Both the position numbers and the translations under genes were made by a program. The notes below the pieces were generated by a model. It ran no database searches and was not told the DNA's origin. It saw nothing but the letters and a program-made list of their open reading frames with translations. Positions 2,439-50,259 of a stretch of 64,000 bases of DNA are shown here, in pieces (position 1 is the stretch's first letter; the number at the start of each line of letters is the position of its first letter). The stretch is from a phage. The stretch lies in the sequence record PZ386964.1. One strand, given 5' to 3'.

Positions 2439-2981
2439 TCAACGCACTTCCTGTGTCTTAACATTACCTGAAGCATCTCTCAAGGGCAGTGGATAGTAGG
2501 CCATTTGGTAGTCTGATACGCCTTCAATGTGATAAAACACGATTACGTCTTTGCTGTTGATGAGCATGTTAACGACATCTGATTTATCTTCTGGAGTGAG
2601 TATTAGTGCGCCGCCTGTCCTGCTGTCTACTGCAACAGGGTATGTCTTGTCGACAAGGCCGCTGTCCAATGTATTATACCTGACAACGATTTCAGGGGCA
2701 TCAACTTTTGCCATCGACATTCCGAACACAAACGACACGACCTGCCGACCGCGATCATTCATTACGCACATCTTTTCTTTGTCAAATCTTTCTTTTATTA
2801 CGTCGTATTTATTCCAGCAAAACTCAAATGACTGCCCATTGTTGAAATATCTTGTCAAAACTTTTGCACTTCCATTCGGCGGCGTGAACATATTTTCAGC
2901 CGATGCAGTCTTGGTGAAGAATATAACTGTCAGCATAGCCATGATGATGATCAAAACAATCTTTAAGTTTTTCGATTTCAT
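2439..2981 (-). CDS. Secreted or periplasmic protein of unknown function
   Basis: N-terminal signal-peptide-like sequence (MKSKNLKIVLIIIMAMLTVIFFTKTASA); a sigma70-like promoter (TTTACT, 16 bp, TATACT) lies upstream on the minus strand. Confidence 0.5.
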   Translation of the reverse strand: MKSKNLKIVLIIIMAMLTVIFFTKTASAENMFTPPNGSAKVLTRYFNNGQSFEFCWNKYDVIKERFDKEKMCVMNDRGRQVVSFVFGMSMAKVDAPEIVVRYNTLDSGLVDKTYPVAVDSRTGGALILTPEDKSDVVNMLINSKDVIVFYHIEGVSDYQMAYYPLPLRDASGNVKTQEVR

Positions 2982-3012
2982 TATAATTCACCTTTTGATT
3001 ACGAATATTAAT

Positions 3013-3040
3013 AGTATAGGCCGAAGGTTTTGAAAGTAAA
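3013..3040 (-). promoter_or_regulatory. Sigma70-like promoter for the 2439-2981 gene
   Basis: On the minus strand: -35 TTTACT (plus 3035-3040), 16-bp spacer, -10 TATACT (plus 3013-3018). Confidence 0.45.
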
Positions 3041-3050
3041 TAAGGCGAAA

Positions 3051-3085
3051 GGTAAATAAAAGAAAAGCCGGAAATTTCCGGCTTT
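3051..3085 (-). terminator. Rho-independent terminator ending the ligase / MazG / spanin transcription unit
   Basis: Palindrome GCCGGAAATTTCCGGC (3067-3082) followed on the minus strand by TTTTCTTTTATTT. Confidence 0.65.
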
Positions 3086-3157
3086 ATGTATACACTGTAT
3101 ATTAAATTCTATAAAACGGCGCGATAGATTATACGCAACAATTATTTATCCAGTGTG

Positions 3158-4132
3158 TTAAAAATACTCCATATCGGTAATATCACGGAAGCATTTATAA
3201 AGCGCAGAGCGCGGCACGTCAACGATGCCAAAGTTAAAGAATTTATACGTCAAGTATTTGTGGCGATAATTTTCGCGATTATCCCAAAGCATCTTCCGCT
3301 CTGCCATAGGCATTGAACCTGCGGACACACGGAAAGGAATCATCTCACCCTTCTCATCTACATACTTTGGATTGACTACGACAAATGATCCGAGATAACC
3401 CTTGGCAACGAGTCCTTCAGCTTCCTTTGATCGTTTTGTGCGACCAAGCTCATCAATGAACGCTTCGTTGTTATTCTCCATCATCTCGACGAAATCTATG
3501 ATCTGTCCTTCTTCGTCGGTCCACGGCTTGTCTTTCCATACATCACGCGACTTCGGCGTTGCGCGACCATGCTTGTATTTGCCCGTCCACGATTTGCCGT
3601 ATAAGCCTTCATATCCAAGCTGGTCCGCTTCGACTTGCATTGCCGCGTATTGATCCATATTCTCAATGTTTCGGTATTCAAGGGCGCGAAGGAATGGTCT
3701 GTGGCCATGGTCCAAGAGATACTGATTGACCTCAGCAACTCTAGCCCGATAGTTCGCATAACGCTTTTCAAAAGGTAAATCGGGGTCGCTGAAGTCATCA
3801 AACACCCACCATGTAAAGTTAGTTATTGCATCAGTATTCATGCACGCAGTATATGCCTGCTGCATGACGTTCTTGTCATTAGGATTGCCGTCGATGAGTT
3901 CACCATCAAGGCCGTAAATCAAATCGCCCAAGAAAAGGAACTCTTTCTTGATTTGAACGTTTCGCAGCGGCATTCCAGACGTACCCATAGGAAGCTTGTC
4001 ATAAGCCATAGCACGTATGCCATCAACCTTAAATGACAATCCGCAAGGTAACGGAACGTCTTCACCGCGTTCGATGATTTGCTTACGTTGACAGCCTTTC
4101 ATTGGCTTAAGCGCTTTGATCTCTCCTGCCAT
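3158..4132 (-). CDS. ATP-dependent DNA ligase
   Basis: Adenylation motif KVDGIR (KxDGxR), LDGELI and EGLYGK motifs typical of ATP-dependent ligases; ATG at 4132 overlaps the stop of the upstream gene. Confidence 0.75.
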   Translation of the reverse strand: MAGEIKALKPMKGCQRKQIIERGEDVPLPCGLSFKVDGIRAMAYDKLPMGTSGMPLRNVQIKKEFLFLGDLIYGLDGELIDGNPNDKNVMQQAYTACMNTDAITNFTWWVFDDFSDPDLPFEKRYANYRARVAEVNQYLLDHGHRPFLRALEYRNIENMDQYAAMQVEADQLGYEGLYGKSWTGKYKHGRATPKSRDVWKDKPWTDEEGQIIDFVEMMENNNEAFIDELGRTKRSKEAEGLVAKGYLGSFVVVNPKYVDEKGEMIPFRVSAGSMPMAERKMLWDNRENYRHKYLTYKFFNFGIVDVPRSALYKCFRDITDMEYF

Positions 4133-18384: not shown

Positions 18385-19569
18385 TTAACGCGCTTTCAAA
18401 TCACGGTACACGGTCAGATTCTTCTTAGCACGGGTGATAGCGGTGTACATCATCTTGGAGTACGGAACGCCGCGCAAGATTTCTTCCAGCACGCACACAT
18501 TGTCCCACTCGCTGCCTTGCGATTTGTGCACCGTGATGACATAGCCATAGTCCATGCCTCCAACAGCGCGTTGCGCTTCTTTGCGCACTTCCTGATCAGT
18601 AGAGAAGGAAAGAGGATTGATCTTCACCTTTATATCTTTACCATCAGTTAATGAACGTAAGTTGACATACATTATTTCATTCGACTCATCTTCATCCCTT
18701 TCAAAGTCCGGCACTGGCTCATAGCTAATAACAATCCCTTGCTCGCCATTACAGAATCCTGGCCCGTGTTGGTTGAAGGTGCAAATAACCTTCTCACCGA
18801 TTCCTGGCATTGGCGTTATACGTCCGCTCACTTGCCGTAATAATGAATTCCATTTATCTTTGGTGCTATTATAGGAGCAAATAATTTGATCATCTTCGCC
18901 CATGAATTTCTTCAACGCAGTAACGCGCGGCGATTCTGCCAATACTTTGACGTCATCGTATTCACGCGGAGGAAGTCGGTTGCCTTGGCGCACGAAGAAG
19001 GAGGCACGGATGATGTTGGACTCTTTCCCTTGCCGCATGATTTCTGTTAACAGAACGTCAACGGCATCTTCAGTAAAGTAGGCGGCGGCTTTTACCGGAG
19101 GGACTTGTCCAATGTCGCCTAATGCCAGCACAGGGATGCGGTGATCAAGAAGGCGCTCTGTGTCCCACTCGCCAACCATCGACGCTTCATCGAGTACAAC
19201 AAGGTGCGGCCTTTCATCCAGCTTTGACTTTCTCGAAAAGATTGGCTCATTGTCGTCATTTACGCCGCGCACGTTATAGATGAACTGGTGAAGGGTCTTA
19301 GCGCCACGACAGCCTTTTTGCTTTAATCGGCTTGCAGCCTTTCCGGTCGGCGCAATATAGATAGCGCCGTACTCACCGACACAGCGACGCACAATCTCGC
19401 GAGCAATAGAGGTTTTACCAGTCCCTGCATAGCCAGCAATGAAAAACACACGCTTCGTCGTTTTACCGTCCTGCAATCGCTTGTACCATGCAACGGCCTT
19501 CTCGATGGCATTGATTTGTTGCGCGTTAAACTGAATCACTGGCTCATCATTAAATTCTGGAATGTTCAT
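18385..19569 (-). CDS. Superfamily 1 DNA helicase, Dda/RecD-like
   Basis: Walker A GYAGTGKT, Walker B VLDEASMV, C-terminal motif ITVHKSQGSEWD. Confidence 0.8.
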   Translation of the reverse strand: MNIPEFNDEPVIQFNAQQINAIEKAVAWYKRLQDGKTTKRVFFIAGYAGTGKTSIAREIVRRCVGEYGAIYIAPTGKAASRLKQKGCRGAKTLHQFIYNVRGVNDDNEPIFSRKSKLDERPHLVVLDEASMVGEWDTERLLDHRIPVLALGDIGQVPPVKAAAYFTEDAVDVLLTEIMRQGKESNIIRASFFVRQGNRLPPREYDDVKVLAESPRVTALKKFMGEDDQIICSYNSTKDKWNSLLRQVSGRITPMPGIGEKVICTFNQHGPGFCNGEQGIVISYEPVPDFERDEDESNEIMYVNLRSLTDGKDIKVKINPLSFSTDQEVRKEAQRAVGGMDYGYVITVHKSQGSEWDNVCVLEEILRGVPYSKMMYTAITRAKKNLTVYRDLKAR

Positions 19570-19895
19570 TATAACTCCACTACGCTGTCAAGGTCCAGAT
19601 ATACTGGAATAAAATGGCAATCTTCTTTTCGTTCAAACATCTCACCATCAACATGGCTGAAGAAAACAGTTGTGTTTGGTATCTTCCATCCTTTCTCGTC
19701 GCGCACTAAGTACGCCATGGATTCAACAGGGATGTACAGCGATACCGGATTTGCGGCAAAAATAAATTTGATTCTGTCTGGTTGACCCAGGAATCGCATG
19801 ATTGTTAGGCTTGAATTCAATCTTGTATTAAGGAAGGACTCAACGATTCCGACGTGTGTTGCACGTTCGCGTTGCTTCGTCTCTTTTTCGTTCAT
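19569..19895 (-). CDS. Hypothetical protein
   Basis: 108-aa ORF, first gene of the minus-strand block; coupled to the helicase gene. Confidence 0.5.
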   Translation of the reverse strand: MNEKETKQRERATHVGIVESFLNTRLNSSLTIMRFLGQPDRIKFIFAANPVSLYIPVESMAYLVRDEKGWKIPNTTVFFSHVDGEMFERKEDCHFIPVYLDLDSVVEL

Positions 19896-19998
19896 TTCAG
19901 GCGACCTTTGTTAGTGCGGAAATATTTTCTGATAGTATAATTGCAGATATAGTATAAAGCAAAGTAAATCGAAATTGTGAACTAAATGGTAAATATTG

Positions 19999-20055: not shown

Positions 20056-21138
20056 ATGGCTAGTTTAAGAGAAGAAGCAAAAATAATCGAAGAGTTTTTA
20101 ACAGAACTCCAAAGAGGCATTCCAGAAGATGAGCGCGTCATGACGGTGTTTGCGCCTGAAGCAACGGTACAGACTGACGAGCGCGGCAAGAAGATTAACA
20201 GCAGCTTCTGGCCTAAGCCTTGGAAGTTGGGAAAGCCGCTGATGCAACATCAGAACGGTTACGCCTGCATAAGTTCAATGCGTAAGTCTCCCAACCCAAA
20301 GACGGGTGAGATGCGATACTGGCGTACAGAGTCGGCCTTTGGTCACGGCATGGCGATGATGGTCGACGACATCGGTCACGGTAAAGGGTCCAAAGGCGAT
20401 TTAGATTTGGAATTCTTTTTTGAGCGACTGAAGCCGACTGTCATCGTCGAGACTTCACCGAACAACCACCAGCTTTGGTACTTCTTTAAAGAACCGATTG
20501 ACCATCTTATTCAGTTCAAAGCGTTCCTTGGGTCTTTCGTTAACATGGTACTCAAGAAGGGCGGCGACAACACGATTAAAGACGTAACGCGCGTGGGCCG
20601 TGTTCCTGGGTGCATCAACAACAAGCGTGTGACTCACGACGGCCCCTATAAATATGTCGATGAGAACGGCGACCCGTTCCGCTGCCGACTTGTCCATGCA
20701 GACTACTCATTGCGCTACACCATCGAAGACATTTGTCAGGCATTTGGCTTTCACGTCGTCATGCCGCAAAAGCGTGAGATTCAAATTGACGTCGATGAAT
20801 ACAAGTATGATGCTGTTTGGTATAAAATAGCCCAGCAGATTCTATCGCGCAGCAAAATGGGTGAAGGGTCTGATGGTGACGTCATCGAGAACATGTCAGG
20901 CAAGTGCCGCATAATCTGTCCTTGGGGTGAAGAACACACCAACGGCGACCCGTATGGCGCTTACTTTCGCGGCCCTATTCCTGGTGCAGAACATGAGTTT
21001 GTGTTCGGTTGCGCCCACGACTGTCACCGGAAAGGGGAAGGCAAGAAAGGTTGGACTGCTTTTGTTGAAGCAATCGTCATGCCTTATATTGAGAATCAAC
21101 TTGACATGATAAATCGTCGTGCAGGTGGCATAAAATAG
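20056..21138 (+). CDS. Putative DNA primase / primase-polymerase-like replication initiation protein
   Basis: Motifs MVDDIGHGKG and VIVETSPNNHQLWYFF resemble primase-polymerase catalytic motifs; C-terminal Cys/His cluster; upstream of a P-loop helicase. Confidence 0.4.
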   Translation: MASLREEAKIIEEFLTELQRGIPEDERVMTVFAPEATVQTDERGKKINSSFWPKPWKLGKPLMQHQNGYACISSMRKSPNPKTGEMRYWRTESAFGHGMAMMVDDIGHGKGSKGDLDLEFFFERLKPTVIVETSPNNHQLWYFFKEPIDHLIQFKAFLGSFVNMVLKKGGDNTIKDVTRVGRVPGCINNKRVTHDGPYKYVDENGDPFRCRLVHADYSLRYTIEDICQAFGFHVVMPQKREIQIDVDEYKYDAVWYKIAQQILSRSKMGEGSDGDVIENMSGKCRIICPWGEEHTNGDPYGAYFRGPIPGAEHEFVFGCAHDCHRKGEGKKGWTAFVEAIVMPYIENQLDMINRRAGGIK

Positions 21139-22447: not shown

Positions 22448-24118
22448 ATGTCAATTGAACATGACAATCTTCCAGAGGATACAGGTGATGAATTTGGTGC
22501 AATCTTTGACGAAATTCAAGACGCTGGTGTTTCAGAAGAGATGCAAGCGGCAGAGCAGCAAGGCACCAGAGCTAAAATCAGCCTCCAGCATAAGGCTGTT
22601 GAGAAAGATGCAGAGCGCATGGAATGCTACGGTGAAGAAGACTTGGTTGAAAGAGCACGCTTGCTCGCCTCACTTCAGGTAATCAAGTTCCCTCACTACA
22701 AGCCTACCAAAGATGACTTCGTTCTACAGGCAGACCGGACGAGTGACATGAACCGTTATGCGGTTTTCGACGCGTTGTTTGATAAGGGAAGTGGCATTGT
22801 TCCATTCCCTCACAAAGATACTTTTCGTGGGCGCTTAGTCGACCATCGCGGCGAAACATTCACTGACCGTACCTTGGAAGTCACAGAGATAGTTGCCGCT
22901 GTCGACGCAGCAGGACTGTCTAACCCAAACTCACGTCAGGTCGCTCAATCCTATAAGGAATGGGCCATGCGTTATCAGCGCGACGACCTGATGGACTTCT
23001 TCTACAAGAAGCTTCCTGAATGGGACGGTACTGCGCGCATTGAAAAATACCTTATCGAGCTATTCCGACCGTTCGATACAGAGTTAAACCGACAAATCGG
23101 TGTGTATTTTTGGCTATCGCTCTACAACCGCCTGACAAACCCTGGATGTCAAGCGCCAATCTCCATCGCGCTCATCGGCGGCCAGAACGCAGGGAAGAGT
23201 TATTTTAGTAAGCTACTTTGCGAAGCTATTATGAACGACCGCCACGCAACACCGATTCCGTTGAACTTGGCCGCGCAGAACTTCAACCCGTTCTTGCGAG
23301 CTATTACGGGTCGCTCAATTATCGCGAACGTTGGCGAGATGACAGGCTTTAAAAAGGCTGACATCGAAAACATGAAAGCATTCCTGACTAAGACGGAAGA
23401 TGACCTGGACTTCAAATTTGAAGATACGCAGGTTAAACCACGCCAGTGGATTGCTATCATGGACGGCAACGAATACGCAGGTATGCAGCGTGATGACACG
23501 GGCAACCGTCGTGTGTATCCTATCTTTGTTGGCCAACTCGCCGACAAGGACGGGCAACCGAACTGGTCGAAAGATTTCCAAGCCGACCTTTCCACTTTGA
23601 AAGAAGACGTTTGGCAGTTGATGGCTGAGTGCGCTGCATGGATGGAGAAGCACGGCGAAGCAGGTTACAACGCATTTGTCGGTGAAACATCTCGCATGCT
23701 TACTGAGTTCAGCAAGAACGAAATGGAACGTGCACGCGGCGTTATCCGTGATGAGATGGTCGACAACGACCTTGTTGAAGTAGTCATCACCGCGCCTTAT
23801 GACCGACATCACAGCGGACGCTGGCACATCACCAGTGGTGCAATCGCTATGGGATTCAGAGCTAAGTGCGGCAAGTCGCCTTTCTCACGTACCCTTGCGC
23901 CGCACATGTCGAAGCTTGGATTTGAGCCTGCAACCTATCGCAACCAGCGTGGTTACTTTACGCCGCTGATTAAGAATGAAGCAGGGGAATACATTTCTGA
24001 CTTGATGACCATCTTAGCGTATCTTATTCGCGATGAGTCTGACCCTGAAGATATTGACTTCTTGAAGAAGGTTATTGAACGCAAACGTTCTTTAGGAAGA
24101 GATAAGGATGAATTCTGA
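22448..24118 (+). CDS. P-loop NTPase / helicase of the phage-plasmid primase-associated (VirE/D5-like) type
   Basis: Walker A IALIGGQNAGKS and a Walker B-like IAIMDGNE; 556 aa; CAGGAGG ribosome-binding site. Confidence 0.6.
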   Translation: MSIEHDNLPEDTGDEFGAIFDEIQDAGVSEEMQAAEQQGTRAKISLQHKAVEKDAERMECYGEEDLVERARLLASLQVIKFPHYKPTKDDFVLQADRTSDMNRYAVFDALFDKGSGIVPFPHKDTFRGRLVDHRGETFTDRTLEVTEIVAAVDAAGLSNPNSRQVAQSYKEWAMRYQRDDLMDFFYKKLPEWDGTARIEKYLIELFRPFDTELNRQIGVYFWLSLYNRLTNPGCQAPISIALIGGQNAGKSYFSKLLCEAIMNDRHATPIPLNLAAQNFNPFLRAITGRSIIANVGEMTGFKKADIENMKAFLTKTEDDLDFKFEDTQVKPRQWIAIMDGNEYAGMQRDDTGNRRVYPIFVGQLADKDGQPNWSKDFQADLSTLKEDVWQLMAECAAWMEKHGEAGYNAFVGETSRMLTEFSKNEMERARGVIRDEMVDNDLVEVVITAPYDRHHSGRWHITSGAIAMGFRAKCGKSPFSRTLAPHMSKLGFEPATYRNQRGYFTPLIKNEAGEYISDLMTILAYLIRDESDPEDIDFLKKVIERKRSLGRDKDEF

Positions 24119-31689: not shown

Positions 31690-32225
31690 TGGGCGGCTTT
31701 TGGCGTAAAGCGAAATACTCTAAAGAGTTGCATTACTTCTTAAAAGATGAAGGCATAAGCATTTGCGGCAGGTATAAAAGGGATGGCAATTCAACTTTGC
31801 AAATTGACAAGAAGGCCGATTGGTTGCTCAAGGAAGAGTGCACCGTTTGCCGCGAGCGTTTAGATAGAAAAGTGAAAACGGTTGACTACATAAAGGAGCT
31901 TCAAAGCAGGTGCAAAAGTCCGCAGGAGTTCGCCATTGCTCTTTGGGGTGATCACCCTGAATTAAGAAAGGAATGGTTAAAGACTGATGCGATCAACTCT
32001 ATTTTTAAAATGAAGTATATGACTACCGCCAGATATAAAATGGAAAAATCAGTCATTAAGAAGGTATTATCTTATTGGAGGGATACGGTTGACATTGTAA
32101 AAATAAAGAAATACCAAAAGGAAGTATTGCTGGAATTGGAAAGGATTGGTTATAAAGTCACCAATAAAATGATAGAGGAAGAGATAAAAAGACGGACTGA
32201 CAAAGGATTGATGCCTAAATTGTAG
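31686..32225 (+). CDS. Hypothetical Lys-rich protein with a Cys cluster; AT-rich 3' half
   Basis: 179-aa ORF; CGRYKRDG ... CTVCRERL cysteines; the last ~230 nt are visibly AT-rich compared with neighbours; last gene before the repeat locus. Confidence 0.5.
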   Translation: MMGGFWRKAKYSKELHYFLKDEGISICGRYKRDGNSTLQIDKKADWLLKEECTVCRERLDRKVKTVDYIKELQSRCKSPQEFAIALWGDHPELRKEWLKTDAINSIFKMKYMTTARYKMEKSVIKKVLSYWRDTVDIVKIKKYQKEVLLELERIGYKVTNKMIEEEIKRRTDKGLMPKL

Positions 32226-32299
32226 CTAATAAACGGACGCTGCTTTACGTGTTTTGAATAATGGGATGTGTACAATGGGTCGCTTTATGCGGCCTTTTG

Positions 32300-32530
32300 T
32301 CGTTTTTGTTGGAAATTTTGAAGTGAGTGGCGTGGACCGTGGTGGTTTGAGGCTTGGTTGATACGTATGGAATTTAGGATATTGTGGATGAAAATAATAA
32401 ATAAAATGGAAATTTGTATTTATTTTTGGAGTATGAGCATTTGATTTTGGATTTTAGTGTGCGGATTTTGGAGAGTGAACCGTGGTGTGTGGTGGCGAAA
32501 GCCGCGCCGTGCCTGGATTCTATGGTTGAA
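32300..32530. repeat. Strand-skewed (GT-rich top strand) repeat region upstream of iteron locus A
   Basis: Repeated GGA(A)ATTTTG-like units and two direct copies of (G/A)ACCGTGGTG (32338-32350, 32478-32490), with an inverted copy at 32893-32905; TGTGGATGA at 32383-32391 is one mismatch from a DnaA-box complement. Confidence 0.4.
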
Positions 32531-32539
32531 GAGTACACT

Positions 32540-32812
32540 CTTACGGATAGGTTTTTATCCGTATCATGGCGCTAGGGTGCGCCGCGCCTGGATTTGTACA
32601 CTGAATCTTACGGATGATACGGATGATACGCCATTTTTCCTTATTGTAACCAGAATTATTTCAAAAATTAATTAACTCCATTTTGAATTAATTTAAATTA
32701 ATTTTTTCTACATCCTCATACTTATGTTAATTTATATATTTAACGTATTATCCGTAAGATATAAGTAAAAACAAAGACTTGCGGCAATACGGATGATACG
32801 TCATGATACGCT
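32540..32812. repeat. Iteron locus A: TACGGATGA-type repeats in both orientations flanking a ~100-bp AT-rich core
   Basis: Hairpin TACGGATA-6 nt-TATCCGTA (32542-32563); tandem ACGGATGAT twice (32610-32627); AT-rich 32641-32745 containing AATTAATTTAAATTA; inverted copy TATCCGTA (32749-32756); further TACGGATGATACG (32788-32800). Confidence 0.6.
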
Positions 32813-33024
32813 TCAACCAGCCAACTGCGGCTAAGTCATTGATTTGCATAACAAGCGGCGAAAGGGATGGATTTCTTTTATACGTATCAAACAGTACACC
32901 ACGCACCACGGTCCGTTATCCATTCAGCACTATGATTTGTGTACGTTTATAGCCATAATGAACATCAATCTGCACTTGAATATAATGTCCATCCATTGTA
33001 TAATTCACACTATTAATTTGCACT

Positions 33025-33513
33025 ATGGGATTTTGCACTATGAGTCAAGATTATGTAGCGATGCCTGAAGACTTTGAAGACCCGCGATTTGCAGAGCACA
33101 ATCAGGCTTTATTCGATGAGTTCATTGACCTTGTTATTCAGGGCCATGACATGCGCGCAGCTTTTGCACTAGTATTTGGAATGGAAGTTGCAACGGATAA
33201 CTACACTGGCCAGCGAATCCTTTGCGCGCAACGCAATCCATACTACAAGATGCGCTTCAAAAAGCGTATGGAAGAGATGCCACTCAAGGATTTGTGGAGC
33301 GTAAAAGGTGCAATTCACAATTTGGTCAAGCTTGTGCGTGATCCAGAAGTCGCGGCATCAGCCAAGCTTAATGCTATTCGTGAACTGAATATCATCTACG
33401 GCATCACGATGATTGATGAAAACGGCAATAGTAAAATGGGCCGTTCTATGGACGATTTCTACAAGGATTTTGGAGAGGCGGCCAAAGAAGGTGAGCAATT
33501 CTCCCGCCACTAG
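33025..33513 (+). CDS. Hypothetical protein, possibly DNA-binding; small-terminase-like at low confidence
   Basis: 162-aa ORF whose start codon sits inside the AATTTGCACTAT motif; helical N-terminal region then charged coiled coil; hairpin after the stop. Confidence 0.45.
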   Translation: MGFCTMSQDYVAMPEDFEDPRFAEHNQALFDEFIDLVIQGHDMRAAFALVFGMEVATDNYTGQRILCAQRNPYYKMRFKKRMEEMPLKDLWSVKGAIHNLVKLVRDPEVAASAKLNAIRELNIIYGITMIDENGNSKMGRSMDDFYKDFGEAAKEGEQFSRH

Positions 33514-33627
33514 CCAATTTGCACTATAAAACGGCCCTAGAACACATTTTCTCCACTTCTAGGGCCATCGGTAATACGACGGGGAAGGTTACAACCATAA
33601 ACGCGTTAGAAAGTGTATTATTATAAG

Positions 33628-33891
33628 TCATCTTTTAGTCACTTTCCGTAACAATTTACGACCTTCAACCGTCCAATCGAACGACTCCACCAGCAGATTT
33701 GCACCATAACCCAAGACGATGCGCCCTTTCTCGTTATCGACCCGCCAACAAGTCTCGAATAGCATTCGATTTGCACTATTAACTATTGCCGCAACGCGCG
33801 TTGGGTAAGCGCAATTTGCACTATGGTCATAAAGGGATAAGGTGCGACCACTTCCGATGGACAACGTAGCAATGAGAATAAGCGTATTCAT
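33628..33891 (-). CDS. Hypothetical small protein with hydrophobic N-terminus
   Basis: 87-aa ORF; C-terminal region paralogous to the C-terminus of the 33942-34568 product; carries two copies of the DNA motif (encoding SAN). Confidence 0.4.
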   Translation of the reverse strand: MNTLILIATLSIGSGRTLSLYDHSANCAYPTRVAAIVNSANRMLFETCWRVDNEKGRIVLGYGANLLVESFDWTVEGRKLLRKVTKR

Positions 33892-33941
33892 AAGCCACCA
33901 ATTTGCACTATGAAAAGCGACCCCGAAGGGCCGCCATTCAA

Positions 33942-34568
33942 TTAGATGATTTGGAATGTGTAGGATTTATTACCGAACTCGAAGTTCAAGCGCCCAGCTT
34001 CCTTAAGCTTCATGCGGAAGCGAATATGCTTGCTATCCGGTAGGCCCAGCGCGGCGAACGCTACGCGGACCGATTTGAACTCTCCTACACCCTCGACCAT
34101 AACGCCGTTACGGGTGAGACGCTTTTGCGCCACTTCCTTATTGTCCCAACTTTTTGCAATGCCTTCGCTATTCGAACGGCGATGGGAAGGAGTTCCATTT
34201 TGCACTACGCAATTTGCACTATCGTTTAAACCGCTCTTAACGAAGGCTTCATACTCTTCGTCGGTCATCGCGTCGAGTTCTTCCTGAGTCGGCTCGGCCT
34301 TTTTAACTACCGCACGCGCCTTATGCGTTTTTACATCGCTGGACACTTCCTCGCGCGGCTTCGCGTCGGGGATGGGCGATTCGTTGGACGGCTCATCGAG
34401 CGCGTTTAAGGACTCGATTAACGCGATTACGCGAGTCTCGGCGGTCCGGCGGTCCGCAAACTTCTTAATCGGCTTCGAACCGGAATTTGCATTATAAAAT
34501 GCAACGAGGTCGGCGGTCTTAGTTGCGATAACGTCGCCGCTAGTCGAGAAACGATTTAAGCTAACCAT
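33942..34568 (-). CDS. Hypothetical protein
   Basis: 208-aa ORF with TAGGAG site; C-terminal part (DSANC...WDNKE...NGVMVEGVG) paralogous to the 33628-33891 product. Confidence 0.5.
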   Translation of the reverse strand: MVSLNRFSTSGDVIATKTADLVAFYNANSGSKPIKKFADRRTAETRVIALIESLNALDEPSNESPIPDAKPREEVSSDVKTHKARAVVKKAEPTQEELDAMTDEEYEAFVKSGLNDSANCVVQNGTPSHRRSNSEGIAKSWDNKEVAQKRLTRNGVMVEGVGEFKSVRVAFAALGLPDSKHIRFRMKLKEAGRLNFEFGNKSYTFQII

Positions 34569-34648
34569 AATAAACTCCTATTTGTTAGGGCGCTAGGCGC
34601 GAAAGAATTTTATTAAAGCGCCGCGCACGACGCTCTAAAAATCCTCTC

Positions 34649-34933
34649 TTACGCTTCGACGAGGGAGAAGGTCTCAAATTCTTCTTCGCCCATAACGAGT
34701 AAGATATTACCGATTTCGACCGCTTCGAAGAAGTATCCGTTAACGTTTACTTCGAAGGCTTCGCGGTCCGATTCCGGTAGCGCCGCGTAAAGTTTAAAAG
34801 CCTCGGCGACCGTTACCCCACCCGCCTCGATAGTTTGGTCTACGTTCGCGGCGTAGACTTCGGATAAATTTTGTTTAACGCCGTAGTTCTCGACGATAGC
34901 GTTACGAATAGAAGAAACGTTAAGAATAGCCAT
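34649..34933 (-). CDS. Small acidic protein, paralog A
   Basis: 94 aa, strongly acidic (net about -12); TAGGAG site; paralogous to the 35568-35858 product. Confidence 0.55.
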   Translation of the reverse strand: MAILNVSSIRNAIVENYGVKQNLSEVYAANVDQTIEAGGVTVAEAFKLYAALPESDREAFEVNVNGYFFEAVEIGNILLVMGEEEFETFSLVEA

Positions 34934-35002
34934 TTTAAACTCCTAGTTGGGAGAGGCGTTAACGACCTATTCGTTAACTCATCCCGTCCCGATATGAGTA
35001 CA

Positions 35003-35029
35003 TTATAATATAGTGTAGAAAAAAGTAAA
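35003..35029 (-). promoter_or_regulatory. Possible minus-strand promoter for acidic paralog A (divergent from the 35157 gene promoter)
   Basis: Minus strand: -35 TTTACT (plus 35024-35029) within an inverted copy of the AAAGTGCTTTACT element; -10 TATAAT (plus 35003-35008) at a short 15-bp spacing. Confidence 0.3.
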
Positions 35030-35072
35030 GCACTTTTTCGATAAAAATGAGATAAATTATTTTATCTTTTTC

Positions 35073-35100
35073 TTTACTTCTTCGTACACTCGCATATACT
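35073..35100 (+). promoter_or_regulatory. Sigma70-like promoter for the 35157-35459 gene
   Basis: -35 TTTACT (35073-35078), 16-bp spacer, -10 TATACT (35095-35100); shares TTTACTTCTTCGTACACT with the next promoter. Confidence 0.5.
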
Positions 35101-35156
35101 TGTTTATATCGAGACGGGCGATGTCCCTTCCTTCTACTAGCATCGGGAGCTTTATT

Positions 35157-35459
35157 ATGACTACTTTAATCTCTTCCATCCTTACTTACGACGAAGACCG
35201 CTTAACCGTTCGCTCTCTTATCGCCGCCGTTAACGCGGAACTAGAATCTAGCGCCATTAAGGTCCGCGCGGTCGCCTTCATCGGCCTTTCCTTCGACGAT
35301 ATGAAGTATGCCGAACGTAGCGCTATCCGCTTCGCGAAGACCGACGACGAAGCCGTTACCCTTATCGAGACGGTTACGCCGCGCGGCGAAGCGTTAATTA
35401 TCGTCGAGTATATCGACGTAGAAGGCGATAAGGCTTATAAATATTTTATCGCAGAATAA
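35157..35459 (+). CDS. Small acidic protein, possibly a third member of the same family
   Basis: 100 aa; GGGAG site; promoter TTTACT, 16 bp, TATACT upstream; acidic composition similar to the flanking paralogs. Confidence 0.5.
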   Translation: MTTLISSILTYDEDRLTVRSLIAAVNAELESSAIKVRAVAFIGLSFDDMKYAERSAIRFAKTDDEAVTLIETVTPRGEALIIVEYIDVEGDKAYKYFIAE

Positions 35460-35470
35460 CGAAAAAGTGC

Positions 35471-35499
35471 TTTACTTCTTCGTACACTAAGACTATAAT
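35471..35499 (+). promoter_or_regulatory. Sigma70-like promoter for acidic paralog B
   Basis: -35 TTTACT (35471-35476), 17-bp spacer, -10 TATAAT (35494-35499). Confidence 0.55.
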
Positions 35500-35567
35500 G
35501 TTTTATATCGAGAGGGGGATGAGGTAGCGAATAGGTCGCTACCCTCCCGACCAACTAGGAGATTATT

Positions 35568-35858
35568 ATGATTACTTTAGCCGCTATCCGTAACGCTCGC
35601 GCCGAAACTTCCGAAAACTCTAACGTATTTGGCGAAAAACTTAAAAACGTTTATCTCTTTAACGTAGATGCGACTATCGAGGAGCTTCATAGTCCTATCG
35701 ATTTTAGCGAATTTACGGAACTCGAAGAGGAAGATATTTCTACCTTCCGCGTTACTATCGAAGGCAAGGTTTATTTTGCTACGGAGTTCGGCGGCGAATA
35801 TCTCGCGGTATCCGAAGGCGAAGGCCGTTACTCTTTCTTTAAAATCGTCTCCTTATAA
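35568..35858 (+). CDS. Small acidic protein, paralog B
   Basis: 96 aa; AGGAG site; promoter TTTACT, 17 bp, TATAAT upstream; terminator downstream; N-terminal and FxV...G...F.A.E.G motifs shared with paralog A. Confidence 0.55.
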   Translation: MITLAAIRNARAETSENSNVFGEKLKNVYLFNVDATIEELHSPIDFSEFTELEEEDISTFRVTIEGKVYFATEFGGEYLAVSEGEGRYSFFKIVSL

Positions 35859-35878
35859 TACCCTTCCGTTATTAATAG

Positions 35879-35903
35879 GCCGCGCTTAGTCGCGGCTTTT
35901 CTT
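35879..35903 (+). terminator. Rho-independent terminator after acidic paralog B
   Basis: Hairpin GCCGCG-CTTAGT-CGCGGC followed by TTTTCTT. Confidence 0.6.
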
Positions 35904-35905
35904 CG

Positions 35906-36557
35906 TCCCTATCTCGATGCGCTTCTCCGCGAAAACTCCTTTATCCTTCCCTTCTTCGTCGCATAATCTTCATCGAGATGCGCCTTAGTTCGCATAACAG
36001 GTATTACGTTAAATGGAGAACATCGCGTAAGTCCTTGTTTTATATAGACACCTATATCGGACCGTTAGGGCGGGTCGCGTAAGTCGTTGTTTTATAAAGG
36101 CGCAAAACTTTCCCTTCGTTCCGAACTAAAACGAGAAATATGCCGACCCTTCGCCGGAAAATAGTACGCATGCGAAATTACATGCATCTAGAATAATCCC
36201 CACCGATATTATCCTACACGCAATCATTCGCTTTCGAATCATTATGCTTCATATTATTATGCGTCGAATCATTCGCTTTCGAATTGTAACGCTGGAAACT
36301 GTAACGTCGATTGATTATTGCGTTCGTGTGGTTTTTATGGCATGGGTCTTTTGGTGCGTTTTGCTACTTGATGGAATTTGCAGTACACTAATCAAAATAC
36401 GACACATTTGGTCCACTAACTTTTCAAAGAAAAAGTCCTAGACAGTACCGTACTATTTTGTACCCACAGGAAATTTGCAGTACACTCCTGTGCGGCAGGC
36501 AAAATAAAGGGCCGCACCAAGCGACCCACGATTCACGGTTAAATCAACAAGCACCCA
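35906..36557. repeat. ORF-free, repeat-rich ~650-bp region
   Basis: Direct repeat CGCGTAAGTC(C/G)TTGTTTTATA (36014 and 36076); palindrome ATTCGCTTTCGAAT twice (36225, 36270); AATTTGCAGTACACT twice (about 36366 and 36470); hairpin GTGCGGC-14 nt-GCCGCAC. Confidence 0.5.
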
Positions 36558-48283: not shown

Positions 48284-48421
48284 ATGCAAAAGATTATTCA
48301 GTCACGTTACGTTAAAGTGCGAAATATTAATTGCAACTCTTTGCTTTCTTGGAAATGGGCTGTTTACGACTCGATGCTGATTGGCGTTTTAGTTGCTGGA
48401 GTGCTTTTTAATATTCACTGA
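48284..48421 (+). CDS. Small membrane peptide (45 aa), absent from the ORF track
   Basis: Strong AAGAGGAAG site 6 nt before the ATG; hydrophobic helix SMLIGVLVAGVLF. Confidence 0.4.
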   Translation: MQKIIQSRYVKVRNINCNSLLSWKWAVYDSMLIGVLVAGVLFNIH

Positions 48422-48461
48422 ATCGCCTGGCAATGGATTGCCGCAGGATTTTACGCGTATA

Positions 48462-48723
48462 ATGACGTATCATCCGTATCAAGTAAGTAGTTGTTTTCGA
48501 AAGAATCTTACGGGTGATACGGATGATACGCGTTGCCGCGATACTTTATAGGAATTCAAATAAATTAATTTAAAATTATATATCTAATTTAATTTTATTT
48601 TTTTATAAACTCTTATATATGAAAAGTATCCGTATCATCCGTATCATCCGTAGCACACCAGTGATAGCGCGGCTTATACACCGATACGGATAAAAATACG
48701 CCTCATTTTATCCGTATCATCCG
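48462..48723. repeat. Iteron locus B: long inverted repeat of GATACGGATGATACG-type units around an AT-rich core, plus a 13-bp-arm hairpin
   Basis: Left arm CTTACGGGTGATACGGATGATACGCG (48506-48532); AT-rich 48533-48618 containing AATTAATTTAAAATTA; right arm GTATCCGTATCATCCGTATCATCCGTAGC (48618-48646); hairpin GATACGGATAAAA-10 nt-TTTTATCCGTATC (48675-48710). Confidence 0.6.
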
Positions 48724-48785
48724 TATCACACTAATTAAGTCGCGGCTATATCGGTTGTTATACATATTCAAACCATAATTATTGT

Positions 48786-48814
48786 TTGCCTAAGTTTTTT
48801 TCATTAGATATAAT
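48786..48814 (+). promoter_or_regulatory. Sigma70-like promoter for the head-gene operon
   Basis: -35 TTGCCT (48786-48791), 17-bp spacer, -10 TATAAT (48809-48814), just downstream of iteron locus B. Confidence 0.55.
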
Positions 48815-48837: not shown

Positions 48838-50259
48838 ATGCGAATGCAAACGGCACGCGAAATTGACAAAAATGGATTCTTGACGATTGTGGGTTGTCCC
48901 ATTTCGTCATTTGGCATTTTTGATTATTCTGCAGGTCAGGTTGGACTTGATGGTGATCCGAATCGCATCGTAAAAGTTTATCGCCCAGAGTCAGCGGTGA
49001 AAGACCCCGAAGCGATAGATTCATTCAAAAATATCCCTTTCATCGACAATCACGAAATGCTTTCTGGATTCGAAGGTGATGAGGATAACACAGCACCCGA
49101 AGAGTATGGCGTTGATGGCGTTCTAACTGGCAATGTTTATTATGACAAGCCATGGATGCGCGGCGACCTTAAAGTGTTTAGCCGTCGTCTTAAGAAGGCC
49201 ATTGATTCTGGAAAGGCTGATTTGTCTTTGGGCTATGACTGTGAATTCATCATACAGTCTGGAGAGTTTGACGGGCAGCCGTATGAAGTGGTACAAACAA
49301 CTCTTCGCGGCAACCATATTGCTCTCGTGGACGTTGGTCGAGTACCAGGTGCACGGGTGCTGGATGGTCGTTGCTTTGACCATCTTTGTTTGACGACTGT
49401 AACACCATCCAACGAGGATTTAGACATGCCAAAACCGTTAAAAGGTAAAGCGCGTGATAATGCTGTTGAACAGCTGAAATCACTGATCCCTGCGCTCGAA
49501 CAATTTCTGAATGAAGAGAGCACCGAAGCTGCTCATCAGGACGAAGTTGAAGTGAAAGCAGAAGAGAAGGATTCAACCGAAGAACGTGAAGAAGTGATGG
49601 TTGATCCAGAAGTTAAAGCAGAAGCTGAAGAGACTCCAGAAGGTGAAGAGAAGTTTGAAGTTGAAACTGAATCTCACGCTGGCGGCGAACTTCCGCAACT
49701 GATCAGCCAAATCGAAGCACTTATTGCAAAACTGAAAGGTGGCGCGGTAGGTGATGAAGAAGAAGTTGAAGCCGAAGTCAAAGACGAAGAAGAAATTGAA
49801 GTCAAGGCTGAAGATGTATCACCTTGCGACAAAGCTGAAGATGTGGTTAGCGGCCTGCAAAACAGCAACGTAAAGGGGGCTTCGGTCGAAAAAGATGACA
49901 AACCGACAAAAGCGGCGAAAGCGTCGCCAGGTCCAGCAAAAGGGGAACACTCAATGGCATCTGATTCAGCAGTTGCTGCTTTCTACGCTGATTCTGCTCG
50001 TAAGAATAGCCTCTACCAGCGCCTGTCTAAAGTTGTTGGTGCCTTTGATCATGCAACTATGGACTCCAAGTCCGTAGCGAAATATGGCGCTAAAAAGTTA
50101 GGCTTGAAGTGCGTTGATGGTGCTGAGTTTGACGTTGTGGATAATTATCTGCGCGGCGTTGAACACGGTCAAAAACAGCGTGTAGTCGCAAAACAAAAGG
50201 CCGCTGCGGATTCTGCAGCAACTGACGAAGCATTTGAAGCTTGGTTGAAAGGGGAATAA
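48838..50259 (+). CDS. Head scaffolding / prohead-protease-like protein (putative)
   Basis: N-terminal domain with LRGNHIALVDVGR motif, long Glu/Lys-rich acidic linker, C-terminal domain; promoter TTGCCT, 17 bp, TATAAT upstream. Start may be the ATG at 48844. Confidence 0.45.
   Translation: MRMQTAREIDKNGFLTIVGCPISSFGIFDYSAGQVGLDGDPNRIVKVYRPESAVKDPEAIDSFKNIPFIDNHEMLSGFEGDEDNTAPEEYGVDGVLTGNVYYDKPWMRGDLKVFSRRLKKAIDSGKADLSLGYDCEFIIQSGEFDGQPYEVVQTTLRGNHIALVDVGRVPGARVLDGRCFDHLCLTTVTPSNEDLDMPKPLKGKARDNAVEQLKSLIPALEQFLNEESTEAAHQDEVEVKAEEKDSTEEREEVMVDPEVKAEAEETPEGEEKFEVETESHAGGELPQLISQIEALIAKLKGGAVGDEEEVEAEVKDEEEIEVKAEDVSPCDKAEDVVSGLQNSNVKGASVEKDDKPTKAAKASPGPAKGEHSMASDSAVAAFYADSARKNSLYQRLSKVVGAFDHATMDSKSVAKYGAKKLGLKCVDGAEFDVVDNYLRGVEHGQKQRVVAKQKAAADSAATDEAFEAWLKGE

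Follow-up and report, generated by a model that had tools for sequence, protein, structure and literature searches.

Paired iteron units in a Wifcevirus-type phage genome: candidate Rep-type origins, one of which spans the genome end

What is the role of two related blocks of short repeats that lie 16 kb apart in the genome of a virulent phage, each bracketing AT-rich sequence? An earlier note on this DNA had seen in them the layout of a replication origin, with a site for a phage-specific activator as the alternative. We followed up this proposal in the window, that is, the whole analysed stretch of 64,000 nucleotides, taking locus A as 32540-32812 (the span first noticed) and locus B as 48462-48728. 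Both loci match Wifcevirus phages of E. coli and Shigella at 91-99% identity, including WFC, WFH, ECML-117, FEC19, Mansfield, vB_Eco4M-7 and Bas98-101, which are myophages of about 68 kb; judged by these matches, the window is that of a Wifcevirus-type E. coli myophage. The gene map (Table 1) was derived from the annotation of Bas99 together with Pfam and PHROG scans. Small ORFs lying over the loci (for example 32457-32675 and 48393-48551) were not taken as genes, as related records annotate them inconsistently or omit them. The reading that we favour, with moderate confidence, is that A and B are two paralogous origins of the SaPI/PICI-like Rep type, and that A also carries the terminase cut site at which the terminal repeat starts.

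Table 1. Features of the window relevant to loci A and B
Feature	Position	Strand	Remarks
Replication genes	2.2-19.9 kb	minus	Bas99 annotation, Pfam/PHROG
RepB-like archaeo-eukaryotic-type primase	20056-21138	+	PF16793; 5' of rep-like gene
VapE-like SF3 helicase, SaPI Rep type, 556 aa	22448-24118	+	candidate iteron reader
Small early genes	up to 32225
A, outer left flank	32315-32500		G/T-rich direct repeats 32315-32345 and 32465-32495; GATACGTAT site at 32360
A, left polar motifs and inverted iteron pair	32501-32585	+	GCCGC 32501, 32581; CTTACGGAT ... ATCCGTATC at 32540-32568
A, left iteron array	32603-32632	+	three tandem 9-bp units ATCTTACGG ATGATACGG ATGATACGC; the shared block of the earlier note
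A, AT-rich core	32633-32743		84% A+T; contains AATTAACTCC^ATTTT
Direct terminal repeat (inferred by homology)	32680-36432	+	left 32680; right ~36351 (Mansfield) or ~36432 (WFC)
A, right iterons	32744-32812		inverted copy 32744-32760; AATACGGATGATACGTCATGATACGC 32786-32811; first right GCGGC 32781
A, right flank	32827-32914	+	GCGGC 32827, 32855; outer ATACGTATC site 32880; right arm of long inverted repeat
Two overlapping sigma70-like promoters before terS	32959-33004	+	TGAACA-16-TATAAT, TTGAAT-17-TATAAT
terS, small terminase subunit	33025-33513	+	homologue of phage E217 TerS (PDB 7UXE, E 6e-34)
Head and tail module	from 41.8 kb
B, left flank	48440-48481		GCCGC 48440; inverted iterons 48462-48481 (CGTATCATCCGTATCA)
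B, left iteron array	48503-48539	+	ATCTTACGG GTGATACGG ATGATACGC, then GCCGC 48535
B, AT-rich core	48546-48624		91% A+T; without AACTCCATTTT, the genome-end marker of A
B, right iterons	48625-48746		three tandem inverted units 48628-48654, direct unit 48683, two inverted 48710-48727; GCGGC 48669, 48742
Sigma70-like promoter before DUF2213 protease gene	48786-48814	+	TTGCCT-17-TATAAT; invariant in six Wifceviruses
DUF2213 head-maturation protease gene	48838-50259	+	promoter in front

Architecture of the two loci

The two matching stretches are non-coding (300-400 bases), and the functional units are somewhat wider than the spans first noticed (about 32300-32950 for A and 48425-48785 for B). In each of them iteron arrays lie on either side of the AT-rich core, at 32540-32632 and 32744-32812 in A and at 48462-48534 and 48625-48728 in B. 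The block of about 30 bp that had been described as common to the two loci is indeed there, in the form GAATCTTACGG(A/G)TGATACGGATGATACGC, 29 nt with one difference, at 32603-32631 and 48503-48531. The core string described as conserved, AATTAATTTAAA, is found at 32686 and 48563 and nowhere else in the window, and the 9-mers reported to be inverted on the far side of each core were recovered as well (32744-32760 in A; 48625-48655 and 48706-48728 in B). The AT-richness ascribed to the cores is marked, with 84% A+T in A and 91% in B, as opposed to 54% for the window as a whole.

These repeats are concentrated in the two loci. The 13-mer TACGGATGATACG occurs eight times in the 64 kb and GATACGGAT has nine exact occurrences in the window, in both cases confined to A and B, while GATGATACG with at most one mismatch gives 27 matches versus 12.9 +/- 4.1 in shuffled sequences, 0 of 100 shuffles reaching 27. 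A and B have 25 canonical 10-mers in common, whereas 613 other segments averaged 0.5 and had at most 4. Self-alignment pairs the two loci in either orientation (E 6e-15 and 1e-19), with about 65% identity along 190-237 bp. By these comparisons, A and B are paralogous quasi-palindromic units. The polarity of the iterons is clean in B, where three plus-strand units on the left face three tandem minus-strand units on the right; in A it is mixed on the right, the three plus-strand units on the left being answered by one minus-strand unit and then two or three plus-strand ones.

As for the surroundings, unit A is preceded by a convincing terminator-like hairpin (32277-32295), and the single terminator-like match before B is a weak G-T-rich stem. 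Locus B sits between the DUF2213 protease gene and a small ORF 3' of a head-fibre-like gene. The whole of A is bracketed by a 35-nt inverted repeat with 77% complementarity (32334-32368 and 32880-32914), of which the left arm is G/T-rich and the right arm C/A-rich, each ending in a GATACGTAT-type site; similar flanks, G-rich on the left and C-rich on the right, are seen at locus A of phages SN and Spe5P4. An RNA gene at the loci was considered and rejected: an Rfam scan of locus A gave no match, and the sub-threshold hairpin-type matches in B are due to a long inverted repeat.

Lineage-specific iterons and their candidate reader

The earlier note had suggested searching other phage genomes for the shared block. 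It is kept in Wifceviruses, and the two-locus layout recurs at the same positions in five lineages. Within Wifcevirus, about 415 non-coding bases at B hardly vary; the iterons, core and right flank of A are kept as well, and the DNA further left is variable. A mosaic junction (about 32000-32605) marks the left edge of A: in many Wifceviruses the alignment begins no further left than about 32582-32690, and the early genes to the left of A differ among Wifcevirus isolates.

In all five lineages, the non-coding gaps 5' of terS and 5' of the DUF2213 protease gene hold opposed iterons around an AT-rich core, and each lineage has an iteron of its own that is essentially confined to its two loci: TACGGATGA in the window (Wifcevirus), AACGGTTAT in Pantoea phage PA1 (Kylevirus), CGAAAAGTA in Serratia phage Spe5P4 (Myosmarvirus), GGTAATT(TG) in Pseudomonas phage SN (Pbunavirus) and TAACTAA in Burkholderia phage WTB. 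Per lineage, the two loci have 23-30 10-mers in common, against a background that averages about 1, with maxima of 4-9. That the iteron sequence has changed in step at both loci, the strongest result obtained here, is what one would expect if a single sequence-specific protein reads both, and one such protein probably does read A and B. In a relative (L016) whose Rep is 75% identical, the iterons have drifted from GATACGG to GATACGT, and both the C-terminal domain of Rep (56% identity) and TerS (66%) have diverged, so that this relative favours neither of the two as the reader.

The best candidate for such a reader is the 556-aa VapE-like protein. It carries a VapE-like domain (PF05272), and its ATPase region matches SaPI1 Rep1 bound to DNA (PDB 7PDS, E 4e-11), the sole sequence match among solved structures. 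The same entry is the top PDB fold match of the predicted model (pLDDT 87.8, pTM 0.80, built on 50 homologues), over about 480 columns of a chain of roughly 450 residues, and is followed by the helicases of NrS-1, poxvirus D5/E5 and SaPI5 PriRep5. In the model, residues 436-504 run in the order H-E-H-H-E-E, as in a typical winged helix. Of the folded parts of the protein, this C-terminal domain is conserved least (25% identity versus 56% for the ATPase domain), which fits lineage-specific DNA recognition, though terminal domains often evolve fast and such divergence alone is no proof of DNA specificity.

Gene order links locus A to this protein in several lineages. The RepB-like primase gene lies 1.3 kb 5' of the rep-like gene in the window, and in SN, Spe5P4 and WTB the order is RepB-like primase, rep-like gene and, directly after it, locus A. 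In the window, locus A is found 8.2 kb downstream of the rep-like gene (which ends at 24118; A starts at about 32300), with small genes between, and B adjoins rep in none of the lineages examined. Cumulative GC skew peaks at A, with no minimum there or at B; this is weak evidence on origins, because the sign of the skew follows the gene strand throughout.

A similar arrangement also occurs outside virulent phages. Integrated elements of Caballeronia sp. (L017, JALQDQ010000018.1) and Cupriavidus pauculus (L018, PJRP01000009.1) have the order integrase, VapE-like rep homologue, iteron/AT/iteron gap and terS homologue, with no primase gene called near rep in either of them. In both, the gap after rep is 640-660 bp long and contains opposed iterons of the element's own (GAGTTAC and CACTTAAG). 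They look like PICI-like satellites having a rep-ori-terS module in common with these virulent phages.

The closest known counterpart of such a module is that of the staphylococcal SaPIs, whose origin lies immediately 3' of rep and consists of 6-12 short iterons and a central AT-rich region, with at least two iterons per side in opposed orientation; there, a winged helix of Rep reads the iterons, Rep loads itself and the pri gene lies upstream (PMC9371898). The present loci resemble SaPI/PICI origins in their short iterons on both sides of a central AT-rich region (facing opposite ways cleanly in B and less so in A), in the SF3-type Rep with a C-terminal winged helix (here modelled), in the primase gene 5' of rep, in that the locus follows rep directly in SN, Spe5P4, WTB and both integrated elements, and in that the iterons differ among lineages. 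They differ in belonging to a virulent 68-kb myophage rather than a satellite, in the presence of two full copies 16 kb apart, and in iteron units of 9 bp instead of the 5-6 bp of SaPIs. Moreover, A is here 8 kb from rep and holds the genome end, and there are an extra polar pentamer and a primase of the RepB-like kind.

Repeats of a single initiator at two well-separated loci are known from other systems. In phage SPP1, oriL and oriR are bound by G38P, one origin copy lying in the late-gene region, and in P4 the alpha protein, a primase-helicase, binds both ori and crr; it too is an initiator of the helicase type whose C-terminal domain binds DNA. The loci described here share this trait, their iterons being common to A and B and co-varying, but both copies are complete iteron/AT/iteron units and clear paralogues. 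To our knowledge, neither SPP1 nor P4 has an origin copy at the genome end.

A polar pentamer around the cores

Besides the iterons, a short motif recurs around every core, reading GCCGC to the left and GCGGC to the right (consensus (T)(C/T)GCGGC(A)(A)). Across 13 loci, the ratio of GCCGC to GCGGC is 29:2 on the left and 0:48 on the right (Fisher p 1e-19). The loci counted were A and B of the window, 1800-2430 and 19480-19955 in PA1, the equivalents in SN, Spe5P4 and WTB, and the single loci of L016 (14589-15216) and of the integrated elements L017 (7729-8367) and L018 (7672-8332). This polarity was spotted post hoc, and it then held in every additional lineage and element that we fetched. The pentamer itself is common in the genome, so that the signal is in its orientation, and that orientation opposes the local base skew left of A, where the top strand is G-rich. 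Unlike the iterons, the motif is the same in all lineages.

The sequence 5'-GCCGC-3' is always on the strand that runs toward the core. Forks that leave the core would copy their leading strand from this core-ward strand, along which a 3'-5' SF3 helicase would also track; the pentamer could be a signal for priming or for helicase loading. In plasmid RSF1010, oriV is served by the RepB' primase and the oppositely oriented sites ssiA and ssiB (40-nt hairpin sites). The phage loci resemble it in part, in that they combine iterons, an AT-rich segment and, on opposite strands, pentamers that may be priming signals; one phage protein has a RepB primase N-terminal domain. In contrast, the phage signal is a short pentamer in 2-6 copies per side that flanks the core, rather than paired 40-nt hairpins on one side of it; we identified no ssi-like 40-nt hairpins.

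The promoters next to the loci have to be considered as well. One may suppose that both loci are transcriptional control regions, in which a phage regulator would use the iterons as operators or enhancer-like sites to time the terS and head-gene promoters, the AT-rich core being a bending or UP-like element. Each locus does lie directly 5' of a strong sigma70-like promoter with a perfect TATAAT, before terS in one case and the head protease operon in the other; the promoter following each locus is kept across lineages, and in the related Pseudomonas phage 14-1 promoters of both kinds, sigma70-like and phage-specific, are in use. To this extent the activator site that the earlier note had offered as its alternative retains some basis. 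That idea is nevertheless weakened, because the promoters are separate from the arrays, their -35 boxes lying 58-150 bp beyond the last iteron of each unit, and arrays so placed, which span 270-600 bp with mirror symmetry, go far beyond what known operators need. In addition, half of the polar motifs point away from any gene that could be regulated, the integrated elements keep the structure immediately 3' of rep, and no dedicated regulator gene was identified as co-varying with the iterons. We therefore consider control of transcription an improbable function of these loci.

Another scenario would assign them no part in initiation and regard them as structural or recombinational elements, such as pairing sites for a nucleoid-type or synapsis protein, or hot spots of mosaic exchange. 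A single protein could in principle bridge two distant loci carrying the same sites, and the left edge of A is a mosaic junction from which, at about 32605, many relatives start to align rightward. However, B is nearly invariant and has no mosaic junction, and this scenario leaves the AT-rich core, the mirror symmetry, the polar GCCGC and the link to the rep-like gene all unexplained. It seems to us very improbable indeed.

The genome end placed by homology in locus A, and a proposed scheme for initiation

By homology, the left end of the genome falls at position 32680 of the window, in the middle of the AT-rich core of A (...AATTAACTCC^ATTTTGAATT...). Five related records, from different laboratories, begin at the base equivalent to it, namely Mansfield (PhageTerm), WFC, WFH, Ro157lw and SP13, and none of the related records starts at locus B. 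PhageTerm predicts a direct terminal repeat of 3,673 bp for Mansfield, whose record starts at the repeat boundary. In the WFC record both copies of a repeat of 3,784 bp are present and identical, and Korf et al. put the terminal repeat of WFC and WFH at about 3.7 kb. The right boundary of the repeat is free of iterons. It is also less well defined than the left one, the positions given by Mansfield (PhageTerm) and WFC (assembly) being about 80 bp apart on the window. A repeat region newly described in the re-sequenced vB_Eco4M-7 was set aside; it is a 111-bp repeat at the record ends, and these do not match the terminus of the other records.

With an end at 32680, the left iterons of A would be unique DNA at the right genome end and the right iterons would open the terminal repeat. 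A packaged genome would thus include A in full where the right-hand copy of the repeat joins, as well as half of A at its extreme left; B would lie about 15.8 kb in from that end. The cut-site sequence AACTCCATTTT occurs within the window in A only, and is kept in six Wifceviruses and in a more distant relative with drifted iterons. Since it is specific to A and has been kept despite iteron drift, the iterons presumably serve a role common to A and B, end formation being specific to A.

An end within its core means that a packaging role for A must be considered. Might the iterons be binding sites of TerS, so that A would be a packaging site of the pac/cos type, with repeats flanking the cut, and B a second, uncut TerS locus that could titrate TerS or couple its level to head-gene transcription? 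The virion left end does map inside the core in the five related records, and terS begins just 345 bp downstream of it. The E217 homologue of TerS is reported to have N-terminal helix-turn-helix motifs. The gene terS is also found 3' of the iteron locus in every lineage examined and in both integrated elements; with terS always in this position, gene order cannot separate Rep from TerS as the reader. A is, in this respect, reminiscent of pacL-pacC-pacR of SPP1 and of cosQ-cosN-cosB of lambda, having repeats on both sides of the virion end, directly 5' of terS and within about 270 bp.

Here, however, there is a second copy that is not cut, and it is the repeats that are common to A and B, not the cut sequence. 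One would expect a single packaging site, yet there are two full paralogous loci per genome in five lineages, no related record starts at B, and B is without the cut-site sequence. Moreover, the nearest studied homologue bound DNA poorly, a review reporting no appreciable DNA binding in vitro by E217 TerS. Pbunaviruses, which reportedly package by the headful mechanism and have permuted genomes that lack defined ends, nevertheless keep both loci, and the mirrored polar GCCGC motif would be left unexplained. A terminase signal is better matched by another repeat, TTTGCACTA, which occurs nine times in the window, always on the plus strand and only between 33018 and 34214, in and after terS. Taken together, these points make TerS an unlikely reader of the iterons, albeit one that deserves serious attention.

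The one-strand array itself is made up of nine copies of TTGCACTA (consensus AATTTGCACTAT), all on the plus strand at 33018-34214 whatever the strand of the gene, with none elsewhere in the window, and spans the start of terS through the first 1.5 kb of the terminal repeat. The same array is seen in L016 (6 of 6 copies on one strand) and in PA1 (8 of 10, at 2701-3539), and is absent from SN, Spe5P4 and WTB. Terminase (pac) recognition is one possible role of this array, early regulation another.

Returning to the Rep-type origins that we favour, the following scheme may be proposed. Opposed arrays of lineage-specific 9-bp iterons (core GATACGG in the window) flank a core of 80-110 bp with at least 84% A+T. 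The winged-helix C-terminal domain of the VapE-like SF3 initiator-helicase would bind these iterons, and the helicase would then melt the core and load itself, one hexamer on each side. The RepB-like primase would prime and the phage Pol III-alpha-like polymerase would extend, the GCCGC pentamer on the core-ward strand of both sides perhaps acting in priming or in loading. In A, as a second function specific to this locus, terminase would cut AATTAACTCC^ATTTT in the core and so create the left end of a direct terminal repeat of roughly 3.7 kb. The origin proposed in the earlier note is thus partly supported, as the layout is kept in five lineages, the iterons co-vary, and a SaPI-Rep homologue and a primase are encoded; what had been overlooked is that the core of A also holds the left genome end. 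Observations that count against an origin include the 8.2 kb that separate A from rep in the window, the mixed orientation of the right iterons of A and, weakly, the peak of cumulative GC skew at A.

A bolder version would have all of this at once: A as a dual origin and terminus, the mirrored pentamer as a new signal for priming or helicase loading, and B as a second origin that fires. We think this combination rather doubtful. If it were true, Rep-driven initiation in the core of A would be coupled to the making of the left end and to duplication of the 3.7-kb repeat, so that replication would define the genome end, the pentamer would be a signal common to the whole phage group and to related integrated elements, and firing of B might help to explain the very short infection cycle that Wifceviruses are reported to have.

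Our literature searches returned no description of iterons or origins in these phages, and no mapped origin or packaging site for Wifceviruses or Pbunaviruses. The arrangement therefore appears to be undescribed in the literature searched. An iteron origin with a self-loading SF3 initiator is already known; what is new is its presence in virulent myophages of therapeutic interest, its duplication, the position of one copy over the genome end, and the mirrored invariant pentamer. Both Wifceviruses and the related Pbunaviruses are in use, or have been suggested, for phage therapy and biocontrol, and the analysis supplies precise candidates for them, i.e. two origins, a likely initiator, an exact cut sequence and, separately, a candidate terminase array. 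For genome rebooting and engineering, these help in deciding, for instance, where to open a genome and what must stay in cis. The results also bear on the contradictory reports about genome ends in Pbunaviruses and tie virulent myophages to the replication module of SaPI/PICI satellites, while a polar motif kept across host genera points to an initiation step that has gone unrecognised.

Other short repeats were noticed in and around the terminal repeat. AGTACAC has five copies in the window, four of which (32532, 32893, 36382 and 36479) sit at the two terminal-repeat boundaries, with a TGTACAC variant at 32595, and an 18-mer, GGA(A)ATTTGCAGTACACT, lies on both sides of the inferred right boundary (36373 and 36469); these could be boundary recognition elements or elements of a phage-specific promoter. 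Inside the terminal repeat, CTTTACTTCTTCGTACACT is repeated at 35066-35090 and 35464-35488, before small plus-strand genes at 35100 and 35568, and this pair looks like a shared promoter or operator.
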